Source of the DNA: an uncultured bacterium
Lineage (GTDB): Bacteria; Chloroflexota; UBA5177; JANWHV01
Length of the DNA: 64,000 nucleotides
Assembly: GCA_963827235.1 (NCBI GenBank)
Contig: CAWHAE010000018.1
Span: 256,001-320,000 of the forward strand
Direction of reading: 5' to 3'
Below the pieces are notes generated by a model. It saw nothing but the letters and a program-made list of their open reading frames with translations, was not told the origin of the DNA and made no database searches. Below, one piece after another: positions 5,692 through 21,865 of the stretch. The position numbers and the translations under genes are program-made. Positions within the stretch are counted from its first letter, which is position 1; every line of letters starts with the position of its first letter.

Positions 5692-6771
5692 TCAGACGAC
5701 TGCGAGCAACGGCTGGTAGTCCAGGTCGTAGCCGAAGGCATGCGGTCCGACCAACGCCAGCCCGGCTTCGCTCCGCCAGGGAGCGGCGCAGGGCATCCCG
5801 ACCACGACCACGCGGAAGCCGTAGCGCAGCGTCTCCGTGGTGATCGGCTCTCCGCTGTCCTCGTTCAGCACGGTCACCAGGTCGGGCACCATGGCCACCG
5901 GCTTACCATCGCGCAGGGCGATCAGGTTCTCGTTCTGAAAGCGGATCTGCAGCTCGTGTCCCTCGTCCTCGCCCAATCCGCGGAATGTGGCCTCGCCGCG
6001 GGCAAAGCCCCGCTCGGTCCGCCGCTGCACATCCATGATCTTGCCGTGGAAGAGCCTGCGTCCGCCCGTTACGCTCAGCAGGGCGTCGATCGGGTTGCTC
6101 TTGTCACGGCGCGCGGCACGGATCGTGGCGCCCAGGCGAATAGCCAGGCTTACGCTGCCGGGAATCAGGGCCGCCTTGGCCTGTGCTCCGCTGAGCGCGT
6201 AGAGCGCCACAAAGGCAACGCCGCCCATTTGGATGGTCATAGTGCGTGCTATACGCTCCGCCCAGACGTTGTCGCACGTGTTGAGAATGGCGCTGTTTCC
6301 CTTTTCGTCGCCGATCGCCATGGGCGTGGCTGCGATGCCGTACATGGTCGGGCTCACCATCTGCAGCTCCGGGAATGCCCGGCCCATGCCGTCGGCATCG
6401 ACGATCGGCAATCCCAGCGAGGCGGCGACGATGAAGGGCGTGGTGGAATTGAGTCCACCGGCCTCGATCGGTGTCACCGCCGTGACCTTGCGGCCCAGAT
6501 ATGCCTCCAAACCCTGGAACGCGTGCACGATTTCGTCGCCGCGAGGCAGCTTCTCCACCATCACGGTCGGAGCGCCCATCATCGCCGCCGGCACGACCAG
6601 ATCGTCGTCGCCGAGGTCGGCCAGGTCTATCATGCTCACCCGGCCATGCTCCCGCATCGCAGCTATAGCAGTGAGCTTGCCGATATGCGGATCGCCGCCT
6701 CCGCCTGTGCCCAGCACCGCCGCACCCAGTGCCAGGTCATCCATGGCCTCCGGACCGACTTGTCGCCTCAT
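5692..6771 (-). CDS. DUF917 family protein (thiohydantoin desulfurase-like)
   Basis: GTGGGGDP, GAPTVMVEK, EAGGLNS, DADGMGRAFPELQM, FQNENL, PDL; ATGA overlap with upstream gene. Confidence 0.9.
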   Translation of the reverse strand: MRRQVGPEAMDDLALGAAVLGTGGGGDPHIGKLTAIAAMREHGRVSMIDLADLGDDDLVVPAAMMGAPTVMVEKLPRGDEIVHAFQGLEAYLGRKVTAVTPIEAGGLNSTTPFIVAASLGLPIVDADGMGRAFPELQMVSPTMYGIAATPMAIGDEKGNSAILNTCDNVWAERIARTMTIQMGGVAFVALYALSGAQAKAALIPGSVSLAIRLGATIRAARRDKSNPIDALLSVTGGRRLFHGKIMDVQRRTERGFARGEATFRGLGEDEGHELQIRFQNENLIALRDGKPVAMVPDLVTVLNEDSGEPITTETLRYGFRVVVVGMPCAAPWRSEAGLALVGPHAFGYDLDYQPLLAVV

Positions 6772-7865
6772 GCATCGCCTCCTCGCCGTAGCGGTTTGTA
6801 CTCCATGTCGTAGCCAAAGGCGCGCGGTCCAATGACCGCCAGCGCCTTCGGCGTGGCCATCAACGGGTGGCAGGGCAGTCCCAGCACCGCCACGCGCAGG
6901 CCATAGCGCAGCACTTCCGTCGTGATCGGCTGTCCCGACTCCAGATCCACCATGCAAATGAGGTCGGGTACGGTCGCCACCGGGCTGCCGTCGCGCCGGG
7001 CGACCAGATTCTCGTTTTGCAGGTCGATTTCCAGCATGGATCCGTTGTCAGCACCCAGCCCATGCAGCGTGGCGCGTCCCACGGCGAACCCGCGCGAGAG
7101 CCGCCGGTTGACGTCCACGACCTTGCCCTCGAACAGCAGCACGCCGTCGCAGGCGGCCAGGACCGCTTCCACCGGGTTGCTCTTCGCCCGGCGGGCGCGC
7201 TGCACAGCGTAGCCCAGATCTATCGCCTTGGTCACCGCGTTGGGCACGCTGTACTGCCGGATGAAGCTCCCGCGCATGGGAGGGAAGGCGTAGCCGGCGG
7301 CGGCACCCATGTCCACCGCCGTGGCACGCGAAAGCCGCTCCAGCCAGAACATGTCCTGCGTGCCCGTGAATACCACGTGGTTGCCCTTATCGTCCGCGAT
7401 AGCAGCCGGGGCAGGGGCATGGCCGTAGATGAAGAACGTGCACATCTGCAGCTCGGGAAACGCGCGGCCCATGCCGTCCCCGTCCACGACCGGGAGTCCG
7501 GCTTGGATGGCCGTGATCATCGGCTCCATGGAGTTTGCGCCGCCGATCTCGCCCGAGATGAGCGCGGTCACCCGCTCACCGGACGCGCGTTGCACGGCCC
7601 GCAAGGCCTGAAGGCATTCGTCGCCGCGCTCGATCTTCTCGATGCCTACGACCGGCGCGCCGATCCCGCCTACGCTGACCACTCGATCCTCGTCGCTCAG
7701 CTCCTCAAGCGGCAAGAGGGTCAGCTCGCCGCCGGTCGCCAGCAATTGTTGCGTGCGGAGCCGCCCGATATGCGGATTGCCGCCGCCCCCAGTACCGAGG
7801 ATGGCGGCGCCGATCTCGAGGGCCTTGACGTCGTCAAGCGTAAGAGTACGACCCTGCCTAGCCAA
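6768..7865 (-). CDS. DUF917 family protein
   Basis: GTGGGGNP, GAPVVGIEK, EIGGANS, DGDGMGRAFPELQM, LQNENL, PDLI; TTG start inferred. Confidence 0.9.
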   Translation of the reverse strand: MARQGRTLTLDDVKALEIGAAILGTGGGGNPHIGRLRTQQLLATGGELTLLPLEELSDEDRVVSVGGIGAPVVGIEKIERGDECLQALRAVQRASGERVTALISGEIGGANSMEPMITAIQAGLPVVDGDGMGRAFPELQMCTFFIYGHAPAPAAIADDKGNHVVFTGTQDMFWLERLSRATAVDMGAAAGYAFPPMRGSFIRQYSVPNAVTKAIDLGYAVQRARRAKSNPVEAVLAACDGVLLFEGKVVDVNRRLSRGFAVGRATLHGLGADNGSMLEIDLQNENLVARRDGSPVATVPDLICMVDLESGQPITTEVLRYGLRVAVLGLPCHPLMATPKALAVIGPRAFGYDMEYKPLRRGGDA

Positions 7866-9402
7866 CGGCCAGATCCCCGACCGCCTTGACGTGGATGCGC
7901 GTGGCATTGCTCGGCAGGTAGGCAAGCGGCACTTCCTCTACCTCCACGATCTGCACGCCGCCGGCCGCCGCGCCCGCTTCGATCGCCCGCTCTGTCGCCT
8001 GGCGCTTGGCATCTTCCAGCGCCTGCTCGCGCGGTACGTCGGAGAGCGCATAGACCCTGTCGATCTCACCGCTGACCTGGGCGATCGCCGCCCCGACGGC
8101 ATTTGCCACCTGGAAGTACGGCGGCCTGGTCGCCGTCAGCACGCCGATCTGCTCGCCCACCAGGATGCTGCCGCCGCCCACGACCAGCACAGGCACCGGC
8201 TCCGGTGTCAGCAGCATGCGGTCGCATGCCTCCGCGGCCATGCTCTCGATCGTGTCGACCGCTCGCCGCACCATCTTCTTCTCCAGGCCGCTCACGCGCC
8301 CGACTTCGCCGATCTCGGCCATTCCGGCCGCCACGGCCACGTCGGTAGCCGTGAGCGTGGCGCCGCCGAATACGAGGCCCTCCTCGACCAGCTTGTAGCC
8401 CACGCTCTGCGGCCCAACCGTGAGGCCCCCATTCTCAATCACCAGCGAGCCGCCGCCTAGGCCTATGCTCAGCACGTCGGGCATGCGGAAGTTGGTGCGC
8501 ACGCCGCCCACTTCGATCGCCACGCCCGCCTCGCGTGGGAATCCGCGGTGCAAAGCTCCAACGTCGGTGGTGGTACCGCCGATGTCGACTACCAGTGCCT
8601 CCTGCAGGCCGGAGAGGAAGGCAGCACCGCGCATGGAGTTGGTCGGGCCGGACGCGAAGGTCAGCACGGGGAAGCGCTTGGCGTACTCCGCGGTCATCAG
8701 CGTGCCGTCGTTCTGCGTGAGGTAAAGCGGCGCCGTGATGCCCGCATCGGCGAGCGCCTTGGCAAACGCCCCGAGCACACGTTCGCCCAGGGGCTGCAGA
8801 CAGGCGTTCAGAATCGCCGCGTTCTCGCGCTCGAGCAGACCGATCCGCCCGATCTCCTCCGAGATCGTGATGCGCGCGTCGGGCAGCTCCTCGGCGAGTA
8901 TCGCCGCCGCGCGCTTCTCCATCTCGGGGTTGATGGGCGAGAAGACGGCCGACACGGCGATGGCCTTGATACCGCGCTCCCGGATCTGCCCGGCGATACC
9001 GCGCAGCTCTGCCTCATCCAGAGCGGAAATCTCGCGCCCGTCGAACTCGTAGCCGCCGTGTGCGAGGAACCAGCAGTTGCCCACGGCGTCGCGCAGATCC
9101 TCCGGCCAGTCGACCATGGGGGGCAGAGACTGCGCGGCCGGCAGGCACAGCCTGACCGCCGCCACGCGGGCCAGATCGCGACGCTGTACCACGGCATTGG
9201 TGAACTGCGTGGTACCGATCATCAGGGCGCCTATTTGCCCAGGGCCGACCTTCGCCTGAGTGAGCAACACGTTCAGCGCGGCCGTGATGCCGGCTGTGAT
9301 GTCAGCTGAGTTATTCATCTTGACCCAATCGACAACCCGCGTGCCGTCCATGGCCACGGCGTCTGTATTGGTGCCGCCGACATCGATCCCTATTCTGAGC
9401 AC
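7858..9402 (-). CDS. Hydantoinase/oxoprolinase A-type ATPase (HyuA-like)
   Basis: IGIDVGGTNTDAV, IGTTQFTNA, ERENAAILNA, QNDGTL, SGPTNSMRGA, DIGGTTTD, GLGGGS, VANAVGAA. Confidence 0.93.
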   Translation of the reverse strand: MLRIGIDVGGTNTDAVAMDGTRVVDWVKMNNSADITAGITAALNVLLTQAKVGPGQIGALMIGTTQFTNAVVQRRDLARVAAVRLCLPAAQSLPPMVDWPEDLRDAVGNCWFLAHGGYEFDGREISALDEAELRGIAGQIRERGIKAIAVSAVFSPINPEMEKRAAAILAEELPDARITISEEIGRIGLLERENAAILNACLQPLGERVLGAFAKALADAGITAPLYLTQNDGTLMTAEYAKRFPVLTFASGPTNSMRGAAFLSGLQEALVVDIGGTTTDVGALHRGFPREAGVAIEVGGVRTNFRMPDVLSIGLGGGSLVIENGGLTVGPQSVGYKLVEEGLVFGGATLTATDVAVAAGMAEIGEVGRVSGLEKKMVRRAVDTIESMAAEACDRMLLTPEPVPVLVVGGGSILVGEQIGVLTATRPPYFQVANAVGAAIAQVSGEIDRVYALSDVPREQALEDAKRQATERAIEAGAAAGGVQIVEVEEVPLAYLPSNATRIHVKAVGDLAVG

Positions 9403-9496
9403 GTCCTTCCGATCCTTTCCATTCAACGAACGCGGTGCCATGACGGCCGGCACCATTGCCACGAGAAGCGACGAACTGCCTCGAACTTGAATGCTC

Positions 9497-10516
9497 CTAG
9501 CGACGCTCGTGCAAGAAGCATCGCACCTCCGATCCCTCCACCGGATAGAGCGGCGGCGGACTGTGCCAGCAGCGCTCGCTCGCGTGGGGGCAGCGCGGAG
9601 CAAAGGCACAGTATTCCCCCGGCTTTGCCGTGGCCGCGGCGTGGTGCGTGCCCTCCTGCACGGCAGGCGGCCGGATGAGCATCGCCTCCTCGGGCGTGAT
9701 CACGGGTACGGCGGAGATCAGAAGCTGGGTGTAGGGATGCTGCGGTGCCGCGAACACGCGCGCCGTGTCCCCGCTTTCCTGAACCTTCCCTTCGTAGAGC
9801 ACCAGGACCCGGCCGGCGATGGTGCGTACCAGGCTGATGTCGTGGGTGATGAACATGTAGGATAATCCTAGCCGCCGCTGCAGCTCGAGCAGTAGGTCAA
9901 TCACCTTCGCCTGTACCGAAACGTCGAGCGCCGACGTCGGCTCGTCGAGGATCAGCATCTCGGGACCGGCTGCAAGGGCCCGCGCGATGGCAACGCGCTG
10001 GCGCTGGCCACCGCTCAGACCGCCCGGGTGACGGGCGGCGAATTCCGGCGGTAGCTCGACCAGACCAAGCAGCCGCTCGATCTCGCGTCGCGCAACAGCG
10101 CCGCGCATGCCGCGGTGGATATGCAGGGGCAGCGCTAAGGCCTGTCCGACCGTCCGCCGCGGGTTTAGAGCCGAGGCAGGGTGCTGGAAGACCATCTGCA
10201 CGCGCCGCTTTTGATCGCGCGATCGCTGCCCGGACTCAGGCGGAAGAGCCTCGCCATCCAGCAGGATGGTGCCCGTGGTCGGACGGTAGAGGCCGACGAT
10301 GCTGCGAGCGATCGTTGACTTGCCCGATCCCGACTCGCCGACCACGCCCAGGATCTCGCCGCGGCGTACCACGAGCGAGACGCCGTCCACGGCCCGCTTG
10401 AGCTCCCGGCTTCCTCTCGTCTTGAAGTGCTGGCGCAGATCCTGCACCGACAGGATTGGTCCTTCCGGATCGCCGCGGCCGTCCGCGGTCGCGCGCGTCT
10501 GTGCGTCAGCGGCCAT
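9497..10516 (-). CDS. Oligo/dipeptide-type ABC ATPase (DppF/OppF-like)
   Basis: GESGSGKST, LSGGQRQR, DEPTSALD, C-terminal HPYT and C-x5-RC...C motif. Confidence 0.93.
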   Translation of the reverse strand: MAADAQTRATADGRGDPEGPILSVQDLRQHFKTRGSRELKRAVDGVSLVVRRGEILGVVGESGSGKSTIARSIVGLYRPTTGTILLDGEALPPESGQRSRDQKRRVQMVFQHPASALNPRRTVGQALALPLHIHRGMRGAVARREIERLLGLVELPPEFAARHPGGLSGGQRQRVAIARALAAGPEMLILDEPTSALDVSVQAKVIDLLLELQRRLGLSYMFITHDISLVRTIAGRVLVLYEGKVQESGDTARVFAAPQHPYTQLLISAVPVITPEEAMLIRPPAVQEGTHHAAATAKPGEYCAFAPRCPHASERCWHSPPPLYPVEGSEVRCFLHERR

Positions 10517-11540
10517 CGTACAACCAGCAGGCTACGCGATGGTCGTCCGCCCCGGCTGCAAACGACAGCGGGCGCTGTTCGGCGCAAATGGGCATGGCAT
10601 GCGGGCAGCGCGGATGGTAGCGGCAACCGCTTGGCGCCTCCGTATAGTTCGGCAGCGTGCCGGGGATACCCTTCGCGATCATCTGTCCCGTCAGTCGCGG
10701 CACGCATTCAAGCAGGGCGATCGTGTAGGGGTGGCGCGGGTTCGCAAACAGCTCGGCAGTTGCCGCTTCCTCCACCACGATCCCGGCATACATCACCGCC
10801 ACGCGGTCGGTCACCGTGCGCACGACGCCCATGCTATGCGTGATCAGCAGGGCGGAGCGGCCCTCCTCGCGTACCAGCCGTGTGAACAGTGAGAGAATCT
10901 CGGCCTGCACGGTGACGTCCAGCGCCGTGGTCGGCTCGTCCGCCACGATCAGCCAGGGATCGGTCGAGAGGGCCAGGGCAATGGAGACGCGCTGATTCAT
11001 GCCTCCCGAAAGCTGGAAGGGATAGGCACGCAACACGCGGCCCGGATCGTCGAGCTGCACGTGGCGCAGCAGGGCCTCCGCCCGCTCGTCAAGCTGGCTG
11101 CGCGAGAGGCGCTCGCCCCGCCGGCGACCGGCCTGGCGCAGTATCTCCCGCATCTGATTGCCGATCGTGAAGACCGGGTTGAGCGATCCGACCGGGTCCT
11201 GAAAGACCATGTTGAAGTGAGCCAGGATGACCGCGCGGCGATCGCGCCGCGACATGGTCCGCAGGTCAGCGCCGTCGAACTCGACCAGTCCCTCGATCTG
11301 CGCCGGCGGGCTGGCCAACAGGTCGAGCACCGCGCGCATGAGGACGGATTTGCCGCATCCGGTCTCGCCCACCACGCCGATCAGCTCGCTGGCGGCGATC
11401 TGCAGGTTGGCACGATCGATCACGCGCGCCCGGCCCTCGAAACTGCGGAAGGTCACGGACAGATCGACCAGGCGCAGGCTATGCGGCGTGTGCTTTGGCG
11501 ACGCGAAGGCGCCGGTACCGGGCTCCACTGAGTTACGCAT
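10506..11540 (-). CDS. Oligo/dipeptide-type ABC ATPase (DppD/OppD-like)
   Basis: GETGCGKS, LSGGMNQR, DEPTTALDV, GCRYHPRC. Confidence 0.93.
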   Translation of the reverse strand: MRNSVEPGTGAFASPKHTPHSLRLVDLSVTFRSFEGRARVIDRANLQIAASELIGVVGETGCGKSVLMRAVLDLLASPPAQIEGLVEFDGADLRTMSRRDRRAVILAHFNMVFQDPVGSLNPVFTIGNQMREILRQAGRRRGERLSRSQLDERAEALLRHVQLDDPGRVLRAYPFQLSGGMNQRVSIALALSTDPWLIVADEPTTALDVTVQAEILSLFTRLVREEGRSALLITHSMGVVRTVTDRVAVMYAGIVVEEAATAELFANPRHPYTIALLECVPRLTGQMIAKGIPGTLPNYTEAPSGCRYHPRCPHAMPICAEQRPLSFAAGADDHRVACWLYDGR

Positions 11541-11542
11541 GC

Positions 11543-12448
11543 TCAGACATCCACATCGAACAGATCTCGCAGCCCGTCGCCCAACAGATTGAAGCCGAGC
11601 ACCGCTACCACGATCGCCAGGCCGGGGAACACAGTCTCCCACCAGCCGCTGGGAAGGTCGCCGACTCCTGCCGACACCATGGTGCCAAGGTCCGCCTGCG
11701 GCGGCTGCACGCCCAGTCCCAGGAAGCTCAGCGCGGCGCCGATCAAGATCACGAAGCCGGCATCCAGCGTGACCTTGACCAGCACCGCGGAGGCCGCGTT
11801 GGGCAGAATCTCGCGGAACATGATGTGGATCGAGCCGGCCCCCATCAGGCGCGCCGCGTCTACGTAGTCCTCCTGCTTCAGCGACACGGTGATGCCGTGC
11901 ACCAGCCGGGCATGCCAGGTCCACCAGAGGGAGGTGACGGCGATCATCGCGTTAAACAGGTTAGGAGTGAGCACCGACGTGATGGCCATGGCCATGACCA
12001 GCGGCGGCACGGAGAGAAAGACGTCGGTCAGCCGCATCAGGACAGTCTCGATCCAGCCGCCGTAATAGCCGGCTACCAGGCCGATGATCACGCCCATGGG
12101 GACGCCGATGGCAAGCACGAAGAGCACCAGCACGAGCGAGGTCTGGTAGCCGAACAGAACCCGGCTGAAGAGGTCGCGGCCCGCGTTGTCGGTGCCGAAC
12201 ACGTGCTGCCACGTGGGTGGCTGCAGCATGTGCGTAAAGTCCACGAAGCTGCCCGCGGCGCTCGGGTACGGAGCGACCAGCGGAGCGAGCAGCGCGACCA
12301 GGATGACCGCCACGGTGAGGATGAGCCCGACCACCGCGGTGGAGTTGCGCGCGAATCTGTACCAGCCCCGCCGCCAGCTTTGCCTGCGCAGAGTGCCCAG
12401 GCTGGTCTGCGGCCCGCCCTCGGAGGTTGCGGACGCCGGCACTTCCAC
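11543..12448 (-). CDS. ABC permease (DppC/OppC-like)
   Basis: HVFGTDNAGRDLFSR, YVDAARLMGA (EAA loop), LSFLGLG, FNLLGDGLRD. Confidence 0.95.
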   Translation of the reverse strand: MEVPASATSEGGPQTSLGTLRRQSWRRGWYRFARNSTAVVGLILTVAVILVALLAPLVAPYPSAAGSFVDFTHMLQPPTWQHVFGTDNAGRDLFSRVLFGYQTSLVLVLFVLAIGVPMGVIIGLVAGYYGGWIETVLMRLTDVFLSVPPLVMAMAITSVLTPNLFNAMIAVTSLWWTWHARLVHGITVSLKQEDYVDAARLMGAGSIHIMFREILPNAASAVLVKVTLDAGFVILIGAALSFLGLGVQPPQADLGTMVSAGVGDLPSGWWETVFPGLAIVVAVLGFNLLGDGLRDLFDVDV

Positions 12449-12449
12449 G

Positions 12450-13472
12450 CTACACCGTCCCCTTCAGCCTGATGCGCGGGTCGAGGTAGCCACGCAGCAA
12501 GTCCATTGCCAGATTGGAGATCGAGAACATGACGCCGACGATCAGCACCACGCCCACGATCGCGTTGAGGTCCTTTTCCAGCATGGCGCGCACGCCGTAG
12601 CTGGCCATGCCCGGCCAGCCGAACACCTGCTCGATCAGGAAAGCCTCGCCGAATAGAGAGGCGAAGGTCAGACCGACCACCGTCAGGGCCGGGATCAGCG
12701 CGGGCTTGAGCGCGTACTTGAAGGCGATCCGGGCCCGCGGCACACCGCGCAATCCCATCGCCTGCACGTACTCGCGTCGCAGGATCTCCACCATGCTGGC
12801 GCGTACCAGCCGCACGACCTGCGAGAGTCCCGCTGCCGCAAGGGCAATGGAGGGCAGTATGAGATGCACGAGCGCGCTGCCGAACACCTGGAAATTGCCT
12901 ACCAGCAGCGAGTCGAGTGCCACCATGCCCGTAATCGTGTGGTGGAACTCCAGATTGGGACTGAGCTGGCCGCTCACCGGTAGCACCCCGAGCGCGTAGC
13001 CGAATACGAGCTGCAGGCAAATGCCCACCAGAAAATCCGGGGTGGCAACGCCGAACAGGGCCAGCAGGCGGGCTATCGCGTCGATCGGTCCATCGCGATT
13101 GAGGGCCGCGAGCACGCCGAGCGGAAGCCCCACCACGACCACGAGCAAAGTACTGGCCAATACCAGCTCCAGCGTGGCCGGGAACGTATCGCGAAGGTCG
13201 TCGAACACGTTGCGCCGCGTGAGAATGGCCGTGCCGAAGTCGCCGTGCACGGCGCCGCCCAAGTAACGTGCGTATTGCACCCAGACGGGCCTGTCGAGAC
13301 CGAAGTCATGATCCAGCGACTTGACCTGTGACAGCGTGGCGTTGGGACCCAGGGCGAGACGCCCTGGGTCCCCTGGCACCACACGGGCGAGGACGAACAT
13401 CAGTACCGACAGCCCCAGCAGCACGAGCACCGCCTGGGCGGTCCGGCGACCGAAAAAGGACAGCAGTTCCAC
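12450..13472 (-). CDS. ABC permease (DppB/OppB-like)
   Basis: PGDPG, GLDRPVWVQY, FPATLEL, EQVFGWPGM, YLDPRI. Confidence 0.95.
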   Translation of the reverse strand: MELLSFFGRRTAQAVLVLLGLSVLMFVLARVVPGDPGRLALGPNATLSQVKSLDHDFGLDRPVWVQYARYLGGAVHGDFGTAILTRRNVFDDLRDTFPATLELVLASTLLVVVVGLPLGVLAALNRDGPIDAIARLLALFGVATPDFLVGICLQLVFGYALGVLPVSGQLSPNLEFHHTITGMVALDSLLVGNFQVFGSALVHLILPSIALAAAGLSQVVRLVRASMVEILRREYVQAMGLRGVPRARIAFKYALKPALIPALTVVGLTFASLFGEAFLIEQVFGWPGMASYGVRAMLEKDLNAIVGVVLIVGVMFSISNLAMDLLRGYLDPRIRLKGTV

Positions 13473-13502: not shown

Positions 13503-15158
13503 CTACGACTTCTTCAGATCGTAGAACTGGTACTGGCCCGCCGGGATCCATTGGAAGCCGGTCACGCTTGGTCGCACCGCCTGTCTCCAGAGGTCCGCGA
13601 GCATGAACACGTCGGGCTGCAGCGCCACGATGCGCGCCTGAAGCTGCTTGTAGATCGCATTCCGCTTGGCCGTGTCCACGGTCAGGCGCGACTGGTCGAT
13701 CAGCTTGTCGACCTGGGGGTCGTTGAGCCATTCCATGGACGACCAGCTACCGGACGACTTGGAGTCGTACTGCTGGAAGAACATGCTGTCCGGCGACGGA
13801 TAGAGCACGTCGTAGAACACTTCGGTTACGTTGGGCGTGTCGCTGATCTTCGTGGCAAGCTCGGTGATCCGGTTCCAGGGCTGCGGGCTGATGCTGACCT
13901 TGAAGCCCAGCGGGCTCATGATGCTGTTGAAGAGCAGGGCAATCTGCGACTCGAAGATGGCGCCGGTGACGTAGCTCAGGGTGATCGGAATGTCGCCCTT
14001 GCCGGCATACTTGCTCTTGGCAAGCTCCGCCTTCGCCGCGGCCAGATCCTGCTTCGGCACCGGCAGACCGGCGTCATAGGCATCCTTGAACACCGGCGAG
14101 AGCGGGCCGCCGATCGCCGCGCCCGGACGCAGGTCGTTGCGCGTCGTCGTATAGTCGAAGGCCAGGGCGATCGCCTTGCGCACGTGAATGTCGTCGGTAG
14201 GGGGGATGCGCGTGTTCAGCTTGAGGTAGAACACGCTCGTGGTGGGCGACGACCAGATGTTGAAGCCCAGGCTCTTGAGTGTCGTGTAGGTGGTGTTGCT
14301 CTGGTAGTTGCTGGTCATGTCCAGCACACCGGTCTTGGCCAGAGAGATCACGGTGGGATCCGAGGCTGCCGAGAAAACCAGCACGCGCACCTCGTCGATT
14401 GCTCCGGCCTGCCAGCCGCGGAAGTAGCTGGGGAAGCGCTTCATGCGGAGCTCACTGCCCTCGACGTCGCTTTCCAGCGTGTACGGACCGGAACCGGCCT
14501 CGTTGGAACCGAGCCACGCCTGGCCATAATCACCATCGGCGCCGAACTTGCCGGACTTCTGGTGCGCCTTCAGCGTGGCCTTTTCCATGATGAACAGAAC
14601 CGCCATGGTAGACGGGAACGGCGCGAAGGGCGTGTGCAGCGAAAACTGCACCGTATAGCGATCCAACGCCTTCACCCCATCGGCGGTCAGATAGCCCAGC
14701 CAGACGAAAGAGTAGCCCTGGTTGATGGCAAGGATTCGCTGCGTCGTGTAGACGACGTCGTCGGCCGTCACCTCGTTGCCGCTGTGGAACTTGACACCCT
14801 TCTTGAGGTAGAAGGTGAAGGTCTTGGCATCCGGCGAGGCGGTCCACCGCTCTGCCAAACGGCCCGTCATCGCTCCGCTGGCGGTAGGAGTCAAGAGGGT
14901 ATCGTAAAAGTTGATAGAGGCCATGTTCTGGGTATAGTCGGTGCCGATCGCCGGATCGATGTTGCCGAACACCTGCACGGTATTCAGGGTCAGGGTATTG
15001 GAGCCGGCTTCCACGCGTTCTGCGTGGACGTCGAGTGCGGTGGACAGTTGGGCGAGCGTGGTAGCGCCGATGCCTAGGGCGGCAGCACGTGCCACGAAGT
15101 CGCGACGCGACAGATCACCGGCTACCACAGACGCGAGGAGTTGATCCAGCTTGCTCAC
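13503..15158 (-). CDS. Family 5 ABC solute-binding protein with Tat-like leader
   Basis: LSRRDFVARAAALG leader; LAERW...FYLKKGVKFHSGNEVTADDV; GSGPY; VRKAIALAFD; AGGAGG RBS before GTG. Confidence 0.93.
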   Translation of the reverse strand: MSKLDQLLASVVAGDLSRRDFVARAAALGIGATTLAQLSTALDVHAERVEAGSNTLTLNTVQVFGNIDPAIGTDYTQNMASINFYDTLLTPTASGAMTGRLAERWTASPDAKTFTFYLKKGVKFHSGNEVTADDVVYTTQRILAINQGYSFVWLGYLTADGVKALDRYTVQFSLHTPFAPFPSTMAVLFIMEKATLKAHQKSGKFGADGDYGQAWLGSNEAGSGPYTLESDVEGSELRMKRFPSYFRGWQAGAIDEVRVLVFSAASDPTVISLAKTGVLDMTSNYQSNTTYTTLKSLGFNIWSSPTTSVFYLKLNTRIPPTDDIHVRKAIALAFDYTTTRNDLRPGAAIGGPLSPVFKDAYDAGLPVPKQDLAAAKAELAKSKYAGKGDIPITLSYVTGAIFESQIALLFNSIMSPLGFKVSISPQPWNRITELATKISDTPNVTEVFYDVLYPSPDSMFFQQYDSKSSGSWSSMEWLNDPQVDKLIDQSRLTVDTAKRNAIYKQLQARIVALQPDVFMLADLWRQAVRPSVTGFQWIPAGQYQFYDLKKS

Positions 15159-15244
15159 GATCGAAGCCCTCCTACAACTGGTAGTAGCACTACTCGACGC
15201 TGAGCAGCCGCATACACCTGCAACGCCGAACAGATACGGCGAGG

Positions 15245-15258
15245 AATCATATATGATT
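15245..15258. promoter_or_regulatory. Perfect palindrome, probable GntR-family operator 1
   Basis: AATCATATATGATT, downstream of a minus-strand TTGACA (15289-15294)-18 nt-TACGGT. Confidence 0.75.
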
Positions 15259-15360
15259 GCATGTACCGTAAGCGATGGCTGCAATGTCTGTCAAGCGCCG
15301 GCTCGCGGCCCCTATACGAAACCGCAACGGAACGGATGATGCCATAGCGCCATCGGTGAC

Positions 15361-15374
15361 AATCGTATATGATG
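15361..15374. promoter_or_regulatory. Probable GntR-family operator 2
   Basis: AATCGTATATGATG, 12/14 identical to operator 1, upstream of the GntR fusion gene. Confidence 0.7.
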
Positions 15375-15456
15375 TGGCGGTGAACGGCAGCATGCGACAC
15401 AAGGTATGGTCAAACGCGCCGTTGCGTTATGCGGAGCCTGCTGGATTGGGGAGTCT

Positions 15457-17244
15457 GTGATCAACGACGGTGATCACCAGAGCAAGCACGAGCGAGCCTA
15501 CCAGCTCATTCGCTCGCGCATTCTGGATGGCAGTTATGCGCCCGGCGAGCGTCTCGTCATCGACGCGCTGGCTGGCGAATTCGGTATCAGCCCGGTCCCG
15601 GTGCGCGAAGCGATTCGCCGCCTCGAAGCGGAGGGTCGGATCGTCTATAGATACAACTCCGGCGCCCGGGTCGCCCTGACCGACGCCCGCCGGCATCTGC
15701 GTATCGGCATTGACGCCGGGCGCACGAGTACGGACGCCGTGTTGATGGACGGCTCGTCCGTGCTTGCCGCGGTCAAGCACCCGACCACCACCGACGTGAG
15801 CGGCGGTATCGAGGCCGCACTCGACGCGCTTTTGAGGGAGGCGCGGGCCGCCCCGGGCAGTGTTGACGCCGTGCTGATCGGCACCACACAGTTTTCCCGC
15901 GCCTTTGAGGAGCGACGGTTCGCACCTACCGCCTGTATCCGCCTGGGACTGCCGGCGACCGAAGCTGTCCCGCCCATGATCGACTGGCCGGACGAGCTCC
16001 GCCGGGCGACGGGCTGCCACTGCTACCTTGCTCACGGAGGTCACGCCTACGATGGGCGCGTGGTGGCTGCCTTGCGCGAAGACGAGCTCCAGGCCATCGC
16101 CGTCGATCTGCGGCGCCGGGAGGTCAAGTCCGTTGCCATCTCCTCCGTGTTCTCGCCCGTGGCCTTCGGTGCCGAGCAGCAGGCGGCCACGCTGCTCCAG
16201 GCCATGCTTCCCGGCGTCGCCGTGACGATGTCGCACCAGATCGGTAGCCTCGGCTTGCTGGAGCGGGAAAATGCCGCGATCATCAATGCCTGCCTTCGCC
16301 CCCACTCTCAGCTCGTCATCGAGGCCCTTCAGCGAATGCTGCGAGCAGCCGGTTTCGCCGCCCCCCTGTATCTGACTCAGAACGACGGCACGCTCATGAC
16401 CGCGGACTACGCACAGCGGTTCCCCGTGCTGACCTTCTCCTCTGGCCAGTCCAACAGCATGCGCGGAGCCGGTTTCCTCGCCGGGCGGCGCGATGGCCTG
16501 GTGGTCGACGTCGGCGGGATGACCACGGTGATCGGTATGTTGGTCGACGGATACCCGCGCGTGGCGGCAACGCCCGGGCTCATGGAAGGCGTGCGCACCA
16601 ACTTCCGCAGGCCGGACGCGCAAACCATGGCCATGGGCGGCGGCAGCGTGATCGAAGGCAACCCGCCGGCTATCGGCCCTACCGCGCTTGGCCCGGCGCT
16701 CTTCAAGGATGCGCTGGTCTTCGGTGGCTCCACGCTCACCCTCACCGACCTGGCCGTAGCGGCCGGCCAGACCAGCCTCGGCGATCCGGCGAAGGTCTCA
16801 CACCTGCGCTCCCTGGCAGAGCCAGTGCTCGAGCGCTTCGGCGAGACGTTGCGTCGAGCAGTGCAACGCGCCGGCGCACAGGAAGGGGACGGCCCCGTGA
16901 TCCTGGTCGGCGGAAGCGCCTGGCTGGCCCAGTCCGCGCTGGCCGGCCTGGAGACCACAGTGCCGGAGTACTACGCGGTGGCCAACGCGGTGGGCGCGGC
17001 GACTGCCCCGATTTCCGGTGAGGTGGACCGCGTGGTATCCCTGGCCGGCGTCTCTCGCCAGGACGTGCTGTCGGGAGCCGTCTCCGAGGCGGTGGGCCGG
17101 GCCGTGTCCGCCGGCGCCGCGCCCGATACGGTTCGTGTCACCTGGGCGGAGGACATTCCGCTCGCCTACTTGCCCGGCAGCGTCACCCGTGTGCGGGTCA
17201 AGGCGACGGGATCTCTGGCAATTGGAGTACCTCTTGGCCGCTAG
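15457..17244 (+). CDS. GntR wHTH fused to a full hydantoinase/oxoprolinase A-like domain
   Basis: AYQLIRSRILDGSYAPGERL...LAGEFGISPVPVREAIRRLEAEG then, in the same frame, IGIDAGRTSTDAV...ERENAAIINA...QNDGTL...VANAVGAA. Confidence 0.92.
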   Translation: MINDGDHQSKHERAYQLIRSRILDGSYAPGERLVIDALAGEFGISPVPVREAIRRLEAEGRIVYRYNSGARVALTDARRHLRIGIDAGRTSTDAVLMDGSSVLAAVKHPTTTDVSGGIEAALDALLREARAAPGSVDAVLIGTTQFSRAFEERRFAPTACIRLGLPATEAVPPMIDWPDELRRATGCHCYLAHGGHAYDGRVVAALREDELQAIAVDLRRREVKSVAISSVFSPVAFGAEQQAATLLQAMLPGVAVTMSHQIGSLGLLERENAAIINACLRPHSQLVIEALQRMLRAAGFAAPLYLTQNDGTLMTADYAQRFPVLTFSSGQSNSMRGAGFLAGRRDGLVVDVGGMTTVIGMLVDGYPRVAATPGLMEGVRTNFRRPDAQTMAMGGGSVIEGNPPAIGPTALGPALFKDALVFGGSTLTLTDLAVAAGQTSLGDPAKVSHLRSLAEPVLERFGETLRRAVQRAGAQEGDGPVILVGGSAWLAQSALAGLETTVPEYYAVANAVGAATAPISGEVDRVVSLAGVSRQDVLSGAVSEAVGRAVSAGAAPDTVRVTWAEDIPLAYLPGSVTRVRVKATGSLAIGVPLGR

Positions 17245-18334
17245 GCCGGCGTTGCAGGAACGCCGCCGGCTCGATGCCGAGGACGTGGAGCTGATCGCGC
17301 AAGGCGCCGGCGTGCTCGGCTCCGGCGGCGGCGGGCACCCGTATCTCGGGAAGCTTCTGGTACAGAGTGCCCTGCAGCGGGACAGGCAGATCTCGCTGAT
17401 CCCAGTCGAAGAGGCCCCGCCGGGGTTGCTGCTGTGCGTGGCACAGGTCGGGGCACCGGTCGTGCTGGCCGAACGGCTGGCACAGGGTGCCGAAGCCCTG
17501 CAAGTCTGCGCGACGCTGGAAAGCCATCTGGGCGAACCGGCGGTGGGTGTGGTCTGCAACGAAATCGGCGGCATCAACAGCCTGATCCCGCTGTTGGTGA
17601 GCGCGTATCGCAACATACCGCTGCTGGACGCCGATGCCATGGGCCGCGCCTTTCCCGGGATGCATCAGGATACGCTCAGCATCTACGGCGGCACGCCGGT
17701 ACCGATCGCGCTGTGTGACGACGAAGGGAACGTGGCGATCGTTCACGCTGCCGACATGCGGGCAACCGAGCGGATGGGGCGCGCGCTTACCACGGCCATG
17801 GGAGGCCTGGCCTACCTGGCGAGACCGGTGCCGCGGGCCCGGGGGCTGGACCAGGTGCTGATCCCGGGCAGCTATAGCAGGGCGCACGAGATCGGCCGCG
17901 CTCTCAAACAGGCGACGCGGAGCGGCGATCCTCGCGCCATCGACCTCGAGTGCGTCGGTGGTCGCCGCCTGTTTGCCGGCACGATACACGCCGTCGAGCG
18001 CCGCGCGCCGGGAGAACGGATTGGCGGCATGGTGAGCATTGCCGGGCAAGGCGACGGGTATCGGGGCATGCTGCGCATCGGCTTCCAGACCGAGTACCTC
18101 GTGGCCTGGTACGGCAAGGATCTGCGCGCCGCCACGCCCGACGTGATCAGCGTGATCGACGAGGATACCGGCGAGCCAATCAGTACCGAGGCGCTGCAGG
18201 TCGGGCTGCGCGTGATCGTGCTCCACCTGGCCGCCGACCCGCGCCTGACGACACCGCAGGGCCTTGCCTGCGTGGGCCCGGCCGCGTTCGGCTACGGCGT
18301 CACGTACGGCTCGCCTGAATGGCACACGGACTGA
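17234..18334 (+). CDS. Divergent DUF917 family protein
   Basis: GSGGGGHP, GAPVVLAER, EIGGINS, DADAMGRAFPG, PDVI; GGAG plus TTG overlapping the fusion's stop. Confidence 0.88.
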   Translation: MAARPALQERRRLDAEDVELIAQGAGVLGSGGGGHPYLGKLLVQSALQRDRQISLIPVEEAPPGLLLCVAQVGAPVVLAERLAQGAEALQVCATLESHLGEPAVGVVCNEIGGINSLIPLLVSAYRNIPLLDADAMGRAFPGMHQDTLSIYGGTPVPIALCDDEGNVAIVHAADMRATERMGRALTTAMGGLAYLARPVPRARGLDQVLIPGSYSRAHEIGRALKQATRSGDPRAIDLECVGGRRLFAGTIHAVERRAPGERIGGMVSIAGQGDGYRGMLRIGFQTEYLVAWYGKDLRAATPDVISVIDEDTGEPISTEALQVGLRVIVLHLAADPRLTTPQGLACVGPAAFGYGVTYGSPEWHTD

Positions 18335-18370
18335 TAGACATCCTCTCGCACCCGCCCGCGGGTGGGCGGG

Positions 18371-18492
18371 CCTGAAGTCGGTGATCCAACGCTTCGGTAC
18401 GCCGATCCTGGGACCCCGGCCGTCTCGACCGCGGCCGGAGATGCCCGGCATGGCGTCCATCGCCGCGGGACAACAAGCCGCTGCGTCACAAT
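18371..18492 (+). repeat. ~122-bp dispersed intergenic repeat, copy A
   Basis: Hand alignment to 19886..20006, about 26 differences in 122 nt. Confidence 0.8.
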
Positions 18493-18587
18493 GCCTAGGT
18501 AGGCTCCCGCGCGCCGGCCGCCGACTGCTAACGATCTGCCAAGTATGCTGAAGTAGATCGAAGTGGATCGCAGGGAGGCAATGACCG

Positions 18588-19025
18588 ATGACCACTGTTG
18601 CACATCTGTTGAGCGCCAAGGGAAGCGACGTCTGGTCCGTTTCGCCGGACGCGTCGGTGTACAAGGCCATCGAGTACATGGCCGACAAGCAAGTGGGAGC
18701 CCTGCTCGTCGTCGACGCCGGGCGCGTGGTCGGGATCGTCTCCGAGCGCGACTACGCGCGCAAGGTGATCCTTCAAGGCAGAGCCTCGGAATCGACTTTG
18801 GTACGCGAGATCATGACCGACAAAGTTCTCTTCGTGCGGCCGGAGCAGACGATCGAGGATTGCATGGCCATGATGACCACGCGGCGCATCCGGCATCTCC
18901 CGGTAATGCAGGGCGAGCGCCTGCTGGGCATGATCTCGGTCGGCGACGTGATCAAAGGTCTCCTCACCGAGCGCGACGTGCGCATCGAGCAGCTCGAGCA
19001 ATACATCTCCGGCCGGCGAGCCTGA
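18588..19025 (+). CDS. Tandem CBS-domain protein
   Basis: VGALLVV...VGIVSERDYARK, IRHLPV...GMISVGDV; GGGAGG RBS. Confidence 0.93.
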   Translation: MTTVAHLLSAKGSDVWSVSPDASVYKAIEYMADKQVGALLVVDAGRVVGIVSERDYARKVILQGRASESTLVREIMTDKVLFVRPEQTIEDCMAMMTTRRIRHLPVMQGERLLGMISVGDVIKGLLTERDVRIEQLEQYISGRRA

Positions 19026-19108: not shown

Positions 19109-19801
19109 CTAACAGGACCGGGCTGCCGGCCGGCTCTGCAAGAGACGGGCGATATCGGCGGCCGCGCCGACCAGTGACGATCGAATGACGTTGGCGTGCG
19201 CGAACGATTGCGTGGCCGTACTGGCATTTGGCACCGCGATCACGTGCATGCCGGCTGCTCTCGCGGCTGCCGTGCCTGCCTGGGAGTCTTCCACTGCGAC
19301 GCACCGAGACGGCGACACATGGAGACGATCGGCGGCCAGCAGGTAGATCTCGGGGGCGGGCTTTCCCAGCCGCACCTCCTCGCCGGACGCCACGGCATCG
19401 AGCAGGGGCACGAGACCAAGCCTGTCGACCACGATATCGACCTGCCAGCGCGGGCTCGACGAGGCGATCGCCACCGCGTAGCCCATCGCGGCTACCTGGG
19501 CGACGAGCTCGGGCGCGCCCTCCATGATCTCGGCCTCGTCTCGCAGCAGTGGCTCGTAAAACCGGGACTGTGCCTCGGAAAGCTCCTGGGCAGTGCCGGG
19601 CAAGGAGTACAGCTGTCGTAAGCTCTCCCAGGCTTCGATGTTGCGCACGCCGACGAACGGCAGCATCTCCTCCTGCGTGATGGTCAGGCCGATTTGCTCT
19701 CGGAACACGCGCTCGGCAGCCCGAAACTGCAGCGGCTCGGTGTCGACCAATATGCCGTCCATGTCAAAGATCACCGCGTCGCGGCTCAGTCCATCATTCA
19801 T
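19109..19801 (-). CDS. HAD-family phosphatase (beta-PGM/CbbY-like)
   Basis: IFDMDGILVD, ASSS, GKPAPEIY, VEDS. Confidence 0.9.
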   Translation of the reverse strand: MNDGLSRDAVIFDMDGILVDTEPLQFRAAERVFREQIGLTITQEEMLPFVGVRNIEAWESLRQLYSLPGTAQELSEAQSRFYEPLLRDEAEIMEGAPELVAQVAAMGYAVAIASSSPRWQVDIVVDRLGLVPLLDAVASGEEVRLGKPAPEIYLLAADRLHVSPSRCVAVEDSQAGTAAARAAGMHVIAVPNASTATQSFAHANVIRSSLVGAAADIARLLQSRPAARSC

Positions 19802-19885
19802 CAGCGCGTTCCAGCTCCCTGCTGTGCTCCCTGCAGTACACCTGAGGCTCATCAGCAGTGTAGCGTGCCGGCTCGGACCGGCGCA

Positions 19886-20006
19886 CCCGAAATCGGTGAT
19901 CCACCGCTTCGCTCCGCTGGTCCCGGGAGCGCCGCCGTCTCGGCCGCCTCCGGACGTACCCGGCTTGCGGCCGTCGTCGCGAGGCACCAAGCCGATGCGT
20001 CACAAT
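19886..20006 (+). repeat. ~121-bp dispersed intergenic repeat, copy B
   Basis: Shares tcggtgatcca, gccgtctcg, caagccg, tgcgtcacaat blocks with copy A. Confidence 0.8.
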
Positions 20007-20116: not shown

Positions 20117-21865
20117 TCAGAAGGGGAGCGTGGGCTGGCCCTTGGCCCGCGCCAGCAGCTCCCCGGCCGCGCGCAGCGTGCTGTCGCTGATCGGCATGCC
20201 GCCCAGCATGGCCGCCACCTCGCGCACGCGCTCGTTACCGTGCAGCGCGGTGAGGACGGCGCAGGTGCGGCCGTCCACGATCTTCTTTTCCACCCGCAGA
20301 TGCTCGTCGCCCAGCGCGGCTACCTGCGGCAGGTGGGTGATACAGAGCACCTGGTGGCTGCGTGCCAGGTCGCGCAGCTTCTCTCCCACAACCTGACCGC
20401 TCCGGCCGCCCACTCCCGTGTCGACCTCGTCGAAGATCAGGGTAGGCGTGCGGTCCGCGTTCGAGAGAATGGTCTTCAGGGCGAGCATCAAGCGCGAGGC
20501 CTCGCCGCCGGAGGCGATGCGAGCCAGGGGCTTCAGGTCCTCGCCCGGATTCGGCGACACGAGAAACTCCACCCGGTCGAGCCCCGTTTCGTCGCAGGCA
20601 AAGCGACTCTCGTCGCCCGGAACCGGCACGCCGTCGGCGCTCGCTCGCCTCTCGAGCGCCACATCAAAGCGCGCCCGCTGCATGTTCAGGTCGTTTAGCT
20701 GCTCCTCTACCCGCCTCGCCAGGGTCTGCGCGGCCTCACGTCGGGCCGCGGACAGCGCGGCCGCCTCGCGGCCAATCTCCATGCGCACCTGCTCTGCTTC
20801 GGCGGAAAGCTCTTCCAGCCGATCTCCGGCGCCGAGCAGCTCCTCCTGCTCCGCCGCGGCGCGCCGGCCAAACTCGATCACGTCGGCCACCGAGGCGCCG
20901 TACTTGCGCTTCAGGGACTGCAGCAGGAGCGCCCGCTCTTCCAGCGCGGCGAGCCGAGCCGGATCTGCCTCTATGGAGGCACGGTAGTGCGCAAGGTCGT
21001 GGGCGACCTCGTCCACCACGATCATCGCGCCTTGCAACGCCTCGACGAGCGGCGTCTGGCTGCCGTCGACACGGGCAAGATCGCCCAGCATCTGCAGCGC
21101 GCGGGTTAGCAGGTCCACGGCACTGTCGCCGTCCCTCGCGCCCTCGCTCAAGAGCGCCTGGGCGCCGGCGCCCAGGCTCGCCAGGCGGTCGGCATTGGCG
21201 AGCACCACCAGCTCGGCCTCCAGCGTCGTTTCCTCGCTCGCGCTGAGGTGCGCTGCCTCGATCTCCTCGAGCTGGTAGCGCAAGGTGTCGAGTCGCCTGG
21301 CGGCATCCTGCCGGGAGGCGCGTAGCCGCGCCGCCTCGGCCTCTACGGCGCGCAGGCGGTGGACCAGCGCGGCGACTGCTCGTCGCTGCTCGAGCGTGCC
21401 GGCATAGCGATCCAGCAAGTCGATGTGGCCGGCCACCCGGAACAGCGAGAGATGCTCGCCCTGGCCGTGTATGTCGACCAGCACCTCGCCGACCGCCGCC
21501 AGCACCCCGACGGGGACCGCCCGCCCGTTGACGCGCGCCGTGCTTCGGCCTGCTGCGTTAATCTCGCGCGCCAGGATCACCATACCCTCGTCCCGGTCGA
21601 GCAGATCGTAGCCCTCGAGGGCGAGGGCGACCGCATCGGCCACCTCTGGCGCGTCGAGCGAGAATATCGCCTCCACACGTGCCGCGCGGGCACCGCTGCG
21701 CACCGTCTCGCCGCTGATTCTGCCGCCCAGGACGGCGTCGACTGCGTCGATGATGATCGACTTGCCGGCGCCCGTCTCGCCTGTCAGCACACAGAAGCCC
21801 GGCTGGAAGGGCACGACGAGGTTGTCGATGATTGCGAAATCGGTGATCGCCAGTTCCTGGAGCAT
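20117..21865 (-). CDS. recN: DNA repair protein RecN
   Basis: LTGETGAGKSII, IHGQGEH, ASGGEASRLMLALK, FDEVDTGVGG, ITHLPQVAA. Confidence 0.97.
   Translation of the reverse strand: MLQELAITDFAIIDNLVVPFQPGFCVLTGETGAGKSIIIDAVDAVLGGRISGETVRSGARAARVEAIFSLDAPEVADAVALALEGYDLLDRDEGMVILAREINAAGRSTARVNGRAVPVGVLAAVGEVLVDIHGQGEHLSLFRVAGHIDLLDRYAGTLEQRRAVAALVHRLRAVEAEAARLRASRQDAARRLDTLRYQLEEIEAAHLSASEETTLEAELVVLANADRLASLGAGAQALLSEGARDGDSAVDLLTRALQMLGDLARVDGSQTPLVEALQGAMIVVDEVAHDLAHYRASIEADPARLAALEERALLLQSLKRKYGASVADVIEFGRRAAAEQEELLGAGDRLEELSAEAEQVRMEIGREAAALSAARREAAQTLARRVEEQLNDLNMQRARFDVALERRASADGVPVPGDESRFACDETGLDRVEFLVSPNPGEDLKPLARIASGGEASRLMLALKTILSNADRTPTLIFDEVDTGVGGRSGQVVGEKLRDLARSHQVLCITHLPQVAALGDEHLRVEKKIVDGRTCAVLTALHGNERVREVAAMLGGMPISDSTLRAAGELLARAKGQPTLPF

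Follow-up and report, generated by a model that had tools for sequence, protein, structure and literature searches.

A GntR-family fusion protein with a co-encoded DUF917 paralogue: a candidate two-subunit pseudo-enzyme sensor in a Chloroflexota bacterium

What does a bacterial transcription factor sense when the place of its effector domain is taken by a copy of the very enzyme encoded across the intergenic DNA? This question is raised by a gene at 15457..17244 (+) of a 64,000-nt stretch of an uncultured Chloroflexota bacterium (assembly GCA_963827235.1, contig CAWHAE010000018.1, positions 256,001 to 320,000), the whole of which is referred to below as the window; the complete genome, G000, amounts to 7.98 Mb. 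The original prediction had described the gene product as a GntR regulator whose sensor is a degenerate copy of the hydantoinase A (HyuA)-like enzyme that it faces. The answer that we consider probable goes one subunit further: the gene would encode a locus-specific GntR factor with a duplicated two-subunit pseudo-enzyme as its sensor, controlling an operon for an ATP-binding cassette (ABC) importer, a HyuA-like enzyme and two DUF917 proteins, as well as its own operon.

The regulator is encoded by one open frame of 595 residues with no internal stop, identical to the called protein P0002. Within this frame Pfam recognises GntR (PF00392, 60 bits against a cut-off of 27), Hydant_A_N (PF05378, 98.9 against 25.2) and Hydantoinase_A (PF01968, 83.6 against 22.9), so that a GntR winged helix-turn-helix (wHTH) is fused in frame to a whole HyuA-like domain, as had been proposed. 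The wHTH occupies residues 12-72 (15490..15672, +; residues 29-89 of a longer, 612-aa frame), and the complete HyuA-like domain, with altered loops in its ASKHA fold, covers residues 80-595 (15694..17241, +), leaving a linker of about 8 residues. The start at GTG 15457 fits both P0002 and the N-termini of homologues; a longer start at ATG 15406 was considered and found no support from homologues.

The effector domains usual in GntR regulators are missing, again in agreement with what had been expected: neither FCD nor UTRA nor an aminotransferase domain is matched by Pfam in the regulator at E<=0.01, and ROK is not matched either. The protein thus lacks the C-terminal all-helical FCD domain of the FadR subfamily, the UTRA domain of HutC and the pyridoxal phosphate (PLP)-dependent class I/II aminotransferase domain of MocR; the NCBIfam matches to the HutC equivalog and to PdxR cover the wHTH only (residues 32-96 for PdxR). 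Its likeness to the ROK family is structural only, as seen with Foldseek. Sequence matches in the PDB to GntR regulators were 6ep3, 3c7j and 3ihu. The AlphaFold 2 (AF2) model, built from 63 aligned sequences, reached a mean predicted local distance difference test score (pLDDT) of 90.3 and a predicted template-modelling score of 0.83. In this model the wing strands (residues 62-72) are followed by about 8 residues and then by the first ASKHA strand (81-87), the junction being confident except for a dip to pLDDT 67 at residues 71-80. The best Foldseek matches of the sensor domain were N-methylhydantoinase (NMHase, 9h03), acetone carboxylase, Apc and caprolactamase (6yra), with E-values for HyuA-type chains from 1.6e-28 to 4.4e-20.

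The sensor domain is a paralogue of the HyuA-like enzyme of the divergent operon, as originally stated. BLASTP aligned it to the product of the frame 7858..9609 (-) with 49% identity over 518 residues (E 3e-163); the enzyme likely starts at GTG 9402, which gives a gene of 7858..9402 (-) and, by Pfam and alignment, a product of about 515 aa with intact ASKHA motifs. All four loop substitutions quoted in the original prediction were found in this alignment: from enzyme to regulator, GIDVGGTNTDAV becomes GIDAGRTSTDAV, VVDIGGTTTDVG becomes VVDVGGMTTVIG, SGPTNS becomes SGQSNS and QFTNA becomes QFSRA. At the phosphate-1, phosphate-2 and adenosine motifs the window protein reads DAGRTSTD, DVGGMTTV and VGGSA instead of intact sequences.

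These changes are shared by the homologues. The comparison set comprised 99 stand-alone enzymes, those that matched the regulator best, and 20 fused proteins, with mean pairwise identities of 69% and 60%, respectively. Conservation of at least 95% among the enzymes is shown by 203 columns; in 121 of these the enzyme residue persists in at least 90% of the fused proteins, and the remaining 82 are relaxed. The enzyme residue is kept in 15% of the fused proteins at G89, where 15 of the 20 have R or H, in 10% at N91, 35% at T355, 30% at D358 and 0% at S488. Other columns carry replacements fixed in the fused clade (T147A in 95%, F291L in 100%, T332A in 90%, S488A in 90% and Q518P in 85%), which point to a new constraint on the sequence rather than to decay.

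Residues of the caprolactamase subunit CapA were mapped onto the regulator by sequence alignment. Passages of the caprolactamase paper (PMC8453981) name two aspartates as ATP-binding and target them by mutation to alanine, these being D86 and D351 here, and assign T15, T299, P272 and D302 of CapA to the phosphate or substrate site. Retention of the enzyme residue in the fused clade is 95% at CapA D11 (regulator D86), 90% at D18 (D93), 85% at K32 (K107), 90% at D295 (D351) and 70% at T15 (T90). The figures fall to 15% at G14 (R89), 35% at T299 (M355), 30% at D302 (V358) and 0/20 at P272 (Q331). Judged by alignment, then, the metal/ATP aspartates survive, and positions near the gamma-phosphate and the substrate have lost the enzyme residue, with replacements that differ by lineage. 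The idea of a pseudo-enzyme fares only partly well under this comparison: the loop residues are altered family-wide, but the Mg/ATP aspartates are kept, and the replacements suggest, at the level of sequence, that catalysis may have been lost.

Both the sensor and its neighbour evolve under constraint. The ratio of non-synonymous to synonymous substitution rates (dN/dS) was 0.12 for the regulator and 0.028 for the enzyme between the related loci L011 and L093, 0.13 for the regulator and 0.14 for the downstream gene, DUF917c, between L011 and L012, and 0.26 and 0.25, respectively, between L095 and L096; pairs whose frames began in the neighbouring gene (the L095 enzyme, and DUF917c of L094 and part of L012) were left out. 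These ratios are those of purifying selection on the regulator and DUF917c that is weaker than on the enzyme.

DUF917c lies directly downstream of the regulator (17234..18334, +) and encodes a third DUF917/S-Me-THD-like paralogue of 366 aa, identical to the called protein P0125. Its TTG start at 17234 stands 6 nt behind a GGAG and overlaps the end of the regulator gene, stop codon included, by 11 nt, an overlap also present in L011. Both S-Me-THD_N and S-Me-THD_C are matched (160.6 and 165.1 bits, cut-offs 27), and 2o3i (E 1.6e-11) was the only solved DUF917 structure found by sequence. A DUF917 paralogue follows the regulator immediately in all six loci with DNA at that position (the window, L011, L012, L094, L095 and L096), the L093 contig being cut before it. 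Ten pairs of regulator and DUF917c clusters in the database agree in the length of their longest contig and were therefore taken to lie on the same contigs. In a tree of 123 DUF917 rows, the 31 rows of DUF917c type (29 database proteins together with those of the window and of L011) make up exactly one split, with support 99. A 496-aa open frame antisense to DUF917c (17198-18688, -) has no Pfam match and is most likely a shadow frame that arises from the GC richness of the DNA.

The partner is as degenerate as the sensor. In 90 other DUF917 proteins 73 columns are conserved to at least 90%, and the DUF917c set (n=30) keeps 50 of them. The family residue is retained in 10/30 at E142, 3/30 at K250, 4/30 at D253 and 2/30 at Y323 (P0125 numbering), and at these four family-invariant polar positions the window protein has G, T, A and V. 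With paralogues of both subunits at the locus, both halves of the enzyme pair have evidently been duplicated, and polar residues invariant in the family have gone from both copies. The claim that the sensor is a copy of HyuA therefore holds for that domain, but the domain probably does not act alone, a degenerate, co-translated DUF917 paralogue being encoded directly behind it. As to what the family does, available text of a preprint (bioRxiv 10.1101/2023.09.25.559410) calls DUF917 uncharacterised and a possible hydantoinase. The equivalogs for thiohydantoin/S-methyl thiohydantoin desulfurase, NF058529 and NF058532 (cut-offs 450 and 440 bits), were scored on the two DUF917 proteins of the divergent operon, and neither reached them (DUF917a 133.5 and 113.4 bits; DUF917b 107.7 and 93.9). 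In the open-access literature we found no paper on thiohydantoin desulfurase or S-Me-THD.

Since so much of the enzyme pair is retained, the regulator and DUF917c might instead form an active, ATP-dependent isoenzyme that binds DNA and whose turnover sets repression, that is, a trigger enzyme of the type represented by PutA and BirA. The fused proteins retain D86, D351, K107 and the GG of the phosphate-2 loop at frequencies of 85-95%, both genes are under purifying selection (dN/dS 0.12-0.26), and the 50 columns kept by DUF917c include GGGG, E80, E110, GGxN and DxDxMGRAFP. We nevertheless regard this explanation as unlikely. Most members have replaced the equivalents of CapA T299, P272 and D302, with substitutions that vary by lineage, a pattern that fits a lost constraint rather than a changed chemistry. 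Furthermore, G89 has given way to R or H in three quarters of the fused proteins, K250, D253 and Y323 are gone from most DUF917c proteins, and the dN/dS of the regulator is about fourfold that of the enzyme when the same two genomes are compared.

That the two proteins assemble is supported, although not shown, by structure prediction. For the sensor domain (residues 78-595) and DUF917c the predicted complex had an ipSAE of 0.81, a measure of the model's own confidence, against 0.01 for the best of three controls; the mark used for this score is reached by 58 of 80 solved complexes and by 2 of 110 mismatched pairs. The runs agreed in at least 84% of contacts, and the pLDDT of the partner was at least 86. 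On the regulator side the predicted interface consists of LPAT, DW, DGR, VFSP, GLLE and PLAYLP, motifs common to the fused clade and the enzymes, and of the interface columns conserved in the enzymes 18/23 are kept in the fused clade vs 103/180 elsewhere (p=0.07). On the DUF917c side it includes positions that have lost the family residue (250, 286, 319, 323 and 326). The model is thus compatible with a composite site at the interface, which would have been remodelled on both sides.

The same interface could be read in another way, in which the HyuA-like domain is a dimerisation or scaffold module only, and the signal is the amount or state of DUF917c, competition by DUF917a/DUF917b or the ATP/ADP ratio rather than a pathway substrate. 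Interface motifs shared by enzyme and regulator would allow DUF917a and DUF917b to compete in principle, and the nucleotide-binding aspartates are kept. DUF917c, however, is always encoded with the regulator, their codons overlapping, which suggests a fixed 1:1 partner and not a variable signal, and the changes fixed in the clade at the presumed substrate site (T147A, T332A, and P331 to Q, H or K) suggest a pocket under selection of its own. We consider such a scaffold role quite improbable.

The fusion is rare. In a collection of 5.8 billion proteins, 20 clusters with all three Pfam domains stood among the best 120 of 7958 scored relatives, the other 100 being stand-alone enzymes of about 515 aa. 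A search with regulator residues 1-130 returned 21 proteins, 20 of them with three domains and one a new partial sequence, so that the union of both searches holds 21 fused clusters. Public names of these proteins are hydantoinase/oxoprolinase N-terminal domain-containing protein, N-methylhydantoinase A/oxoprolinase/acetone carboxylase beta subunit, or hypothetical protein, and the source organism, where named, is a Chloroflexota bacterium. The 41 genomes of the phylum that were searched, G000 among them, gave a full-length match in G000 and in two of four genomes of the same genus (G003 and G004, 63% identity). With the regulator as query, no full-length fusion was found in the other two, G001 (87% complete) and G002 (83% complete), or in 36 other genomes of the phylum; one of these, G018, is unpublished and enters only this count of non-holders. 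Scans with an N-terminal alignment revealed fusions with an uninterrupted frame at 4 of 80 metagenome loci (L093-L096) and at none of 80 loci kept from the genome collection, where ordinary GntR genes of about 220-270 aa or cut open reading frames (ORFs) were found.

That a separate GntR gene and a hyuA gene were misjoined by an assembly error or a frameshift is extremely improbable. Nothing was found in its favour, the genome being an assembly of 21 contigs with 9% estimated contamination. The same continuous frame with its short linker recurs in four metagenome contigs as well as in G003 and G004, the three domains stand together in 21 database clusters, and AF2 is confident over the junction save for the dip noted above. 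G000 itself comprises 7.98 Mb in 21 contigs with 9.06% estimated contamination, and its relatives of the same genus are much smaller (4.4-5.4 Mb). The public sequencing runs listed for the stretch are three DNA runs, each with 5-7% of the sampled words, and no RNA run.

How did such a protein arise? In a FastTree phylogeny of 75 rows, the 20 fused sensor domains make up one side of a branch with support 100, and the window enzyme falls together with that of G003 and apart from the regulator. It follows that the duplication is old and that the fusions on the tree have a single origin. P0023, an unfused database protein of 515 aa with intact ASKHA motifs, branches beside the fused clade at an unresolved fork and may represent the line of enzymes that gave rise to the sensor. 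The wHTH has a different ancestry: it is 60-70% identical to that of ordinary GntR proteins of about 220-240 aa, and an FCD domain was present in all five such relatives that were scanned. None of the loci of 156 non-fused relatives has hyuA-like or DUF917 genes within the fetched flanks, for which reason an exchange of domains in place, beside hyuA/DUF917 genes, was rejected (0/156 FCD-type relatives' loci adjoin such genes). As the kin of the wHTH carry FCD and sit away from hyuA/DUF917, its likely donor, on sequence grounds, is a FadR/FCD-type GntR regulator of another pathway.

The operon that the regulator faces encodes, in order, a solute-binding protein, two permeases, two ATPases, the HyuA-like enzyme, DUF917a and DUF917b, all on the minus strand. 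The binding protein (SBP_bac_5, 13503..15158) is read as starting at GTG 15158 behind AGGAGG, its homologues aligning from residue 43 of the long frame. It is followed by ABC permease 1 (12450..13472; BPD_transp_1), permease 2 (11543..12448; BPD_transp_1 and OppC_N), ATPase 1 (10506..11540, start approximate; ABC_tran and oligo_HPY, with a split match in L095) and ATPase 2 (9497..10516, by Pfam). A longer frame for ATPase 1 (10506..11924, -, 472 aa) begins with about 125 residues that are the permease gene in another frame. Behind the enzyme gene stand DUF917a (6768..7862; S-Me-THD_N and S-Me-THD_C) and DUF917b (5692..6790; Pfam), both with approximate starts and 75.5% and 80% identical to their G003 orthologues, respectively. 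The gene order is the same in L011 and, as far as the contigs reach, in L093 and L095; the check originally suggested, for intact hyuA/DUF917 operons beside homologues, thus came out in favour. In the whole genome, DUF917 genes number exactly three and short hyuA-like genes two, and every one of them lies at this locus. Hydantoinase_B (HyuB) was absent among 20 ORFs scanned at and around the locus, the genome as a whole not having been searched for PF02538.

The 298 bp between the binding-protein gene (15158) and the regulator (15457) contain two copies of ATCNTATANGAT. Candidate operator O1, ATCATATATGAT (15246..15257), is a perfect palindrome and lies 88 nt before the start of the binding-protein gene, and O2, ATCGTATATGAT (15362..15373), lies 84 nt upstream of the regulator start. 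In the window these are two sites where 0.18 would be expected. In the 7.98-Mb genome they are the only ones, with none for the reversed control and about 0.6-1.2 expected from base composition. Allowing at most one mismatch, the palindrome is present twice in the regulator/binding-protein intergenic DNA of L011, L012, L093, L095 and L096, once in the cut L094, and nowhere else within these six loci. The genome of G004 contains no sites other than the two at the locus, and that of G002 has none. As a sequence feature, the pair of putative operators is specific to the locus, and the 12-mer alone is not exclusive to it. Each site probably serves its own promoter. A scan of 15000..15600 against Rfam at E<=1 revealed no riboswitch, the one match being a chance-level lncRNA (13.7 bits against a gathering score of 80).

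Two of the loci contain repeats between their sites. In L093 (7460-7880) an insert of short direct and inverted repeats, with GATCGGTCGGATCAGTCCGATC-like runs and repeated GAGCAAGATGCTCGC... palindromes, parts the sites by 494 nt and looks, from its sequence, like a small repeat element that landed in the intergenic DNA. In L095 (9650-9745) a near-perfect long inverted repeat, with about 35 nt per arm, lies between the two candidate operators.

Several observations weigh against a locus-specific repressor with a pseudo-enzyme sensor. The enzymes of the column comparison are the best matches to the regulator and do not sample the family at random, and the relaxation found with them extends across the entire domain: in the three canonical ASKHA motifs 8/19 columns are kept vs 113/184 outside, a deficit that is not significant (Fisher p=0.14). 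D86, D351 and K107, the Mg/ATP aspartates and conserved lysine, are mostly kept at the frequencies given above, so nucleotide binding or even slow turnover is possible. The excess retention at the predicted interface is likewise not significant at p=0.07, and the complex score, being the model's own confidence, may reflect a general HyuA/DUF917 fit, as close cousins of a true partner can pass. In relatives the 12-mer also turns up outside the locus: two further single sites are present in G003 (G003:C28:5178-5189 and G003:C63:8976-8987), and three single sites in G001, in which no fusion was found (G001:C7:495970, C8:512366 and C11:228017). The O1-O2 spacing varies across loci (116, 64, 98, 494, 352 and 340 nt), the range from 64 to 494 nt being due to inserted repeats, and cooperative looping is therefore not supported. 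Finally, a promoter and terminator scan of 15100..15520 found none, no sigma-70-like promoter included, so that repression and activation cannot be told apart from the position of the operators. Of the predicted control of the divergent operon, the conserved operon and the locus-specific candidate operator pair stand; the direction of control does not follow from them.

Taken with these points, the reading of the locus that we favour can be put as a sequence of events. In a FadR-type ancestor, the place of the FCD domain would have been taken by a copy, full in length, of the short HyuA-like ATPase subunit, which then evolved as a non-catalytic or weakly catalytic sensor. Translation of the regulator gene would have become coupled to that of DUF917c, which encodes a degenerate copy of the subunit that partners the enzyme, and the two products would assemble as a pseudo-enzyme mirroring the HyuA/DUF917 enzyme of the divergent operon. 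The regulator, probably as a dimer carrying DUF917c, would bind both ATCNTATANGAT palindromes, one before the ABC-importer/HyuA/DUF917a/DUF917b operon and the other before the regulator-DUF917c operon. Both operons would be kept shut until the imported substrate, or an early intermediate, fills the remodelled pocket at the interface of the HyuA-like sensor and DUF917c. Binding of this ligand may then move the ASKHA lobes, whereupon the closely tethered wHTH pair would lose its fit and leave the DNA. Most GntR-family proteins act as repressors, and it is for this reason that repression of both operons appears the most likely mode of action. The substrate is probably a small cyclic amide, as suggested by the peptide-type binding protein together with the kinship to lactamases and hydantoinases.

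The regulator can be set beside several known systems. MocR/GabR regulators (B. subtilis GabR, PDB 4n0b/4tv7) also join a GntR wHTH to a whole enzyme-fold domain that serves as sensor and dimerisation module, beside the pathway that they control. GabR is a weak Foldseek match of the regulator (E 1.6e-5, TMq 0.13), and the sensor here differs in being of the ASKHA HyuA fold rather than a fold-type-I aminotransferase, in having no PLP and a linker of about 8 residues, and in apparently possessing a second, separately encoded pseudo-subunit, DUF917c. ROK repressors (Mlc and NagC; Lmo0178, PDB 5f7q; Mlc, 1z05/1z6r) place an N-terminal winged helix before an ASKHA kinase-like domain, which in them senses instead of catalysing. 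They were the best non-HyuA Foldseek matches spanning both parts of the regulator (E 4e-6 to 1e-5), but the regulator has a wHTH of GntR type and a large HyuA-type ASKHA domain with inserted domains, not a sugar kinase. MocR/GabR, cited originally as the precedent, therefore remains apt for a GntR wHTH with an enzyme-fold sensor, but the structurally closer ROK repressors had been overlooked; by analogy, the regulator works like MocR/GabR and in structure is nearer to ROK.

With FadR/FCD-type GntR proteins the regulator shares its wHTH, at the identity given above, but not their FCD domain. With the HyuA/HyuB lactamases and carboxylases (CapAB, 6yra; N-methylhydantoinase, 7hk5/9h03; acetone and acetophenone carboxylases) the sensor shares fold and Pfam families; unlike these enzymes of about 690 aa it measures about 515 aa, has DUF917 in the place of HyuB among the scanned ORFs and has had key site residues replaced. 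A further counterpart is the short HyuA-like/DUF917 enzyme pair, of which the divergent operon carries an intact copy and the regulator with DUF917c a duplicated one, the latter fused to a DNA-binding domain and devoid, in both subunits, of some family-invariant residues.

No paper on a GntR regulator with a HyuA-type or ASKHA domain was found in the open-access literature, and in the ESM Atlas the nearest large clusters shown were all plain hydantoinases, at a score of 0.80, which is below the trust level of 0.9. The suggestion of a distinct GntR subfamily gains from this absence, in the literature and in the large Atlas clusters, and from the lack of the FadR, MocR and HutC effector domains; the principle of an enzyme-fold sensor, on the other hand, is already known from MocR/GabR and ROK. 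The unusual feature is the apparent conversion of a whole two-subunit enzyme. We tentatively put forward, as a real possibility, that the entire heteromeric enzyme, HyuA-like ATPase and DUF917, was duplicated into a two-subunit transcriptional sensor of a new GntR subfamily, with the wHTH on one subunit, an obligate, coupled pseudo-subunit as the other, and a vestigial composite active site as the ligand pocket. If DUF917c is truly part of the sensor, the locus would offer a rare example of an entire enzyme of two subunits that has come to serve in signalling. The short HyuA/DUF917 pair occurs widely, with 7958 scored relatives, and DUF917 proteins are said, in the text available of the preprint cited above, to lack experimental characterisation. 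The regulator should bind the same substrate as the enzyme, or an early intermediate, and a ligand screen or an operator reporter could identify the HyuA/DUF917 substrate; if the reading holds, the locus would be a natural biosensor that could reveal the substrate of this enzyme family.

An inosine-uridine nucleoside hydrolase gene (3890-4810, -), possibly a member of the operon, lies about 880 nt past the end of DUF917b on the same strand, and in L011 it does not follow DUF917b. Further out, a DUF3863/DUF3864 protein (1138-2142, +), a HAD-family hydrolase (19109-19990, -) and an SMC_N (RecN/RecF-like) ATPase (20117-21865, -) flank the locus, and these three look unrelated to the regulator.

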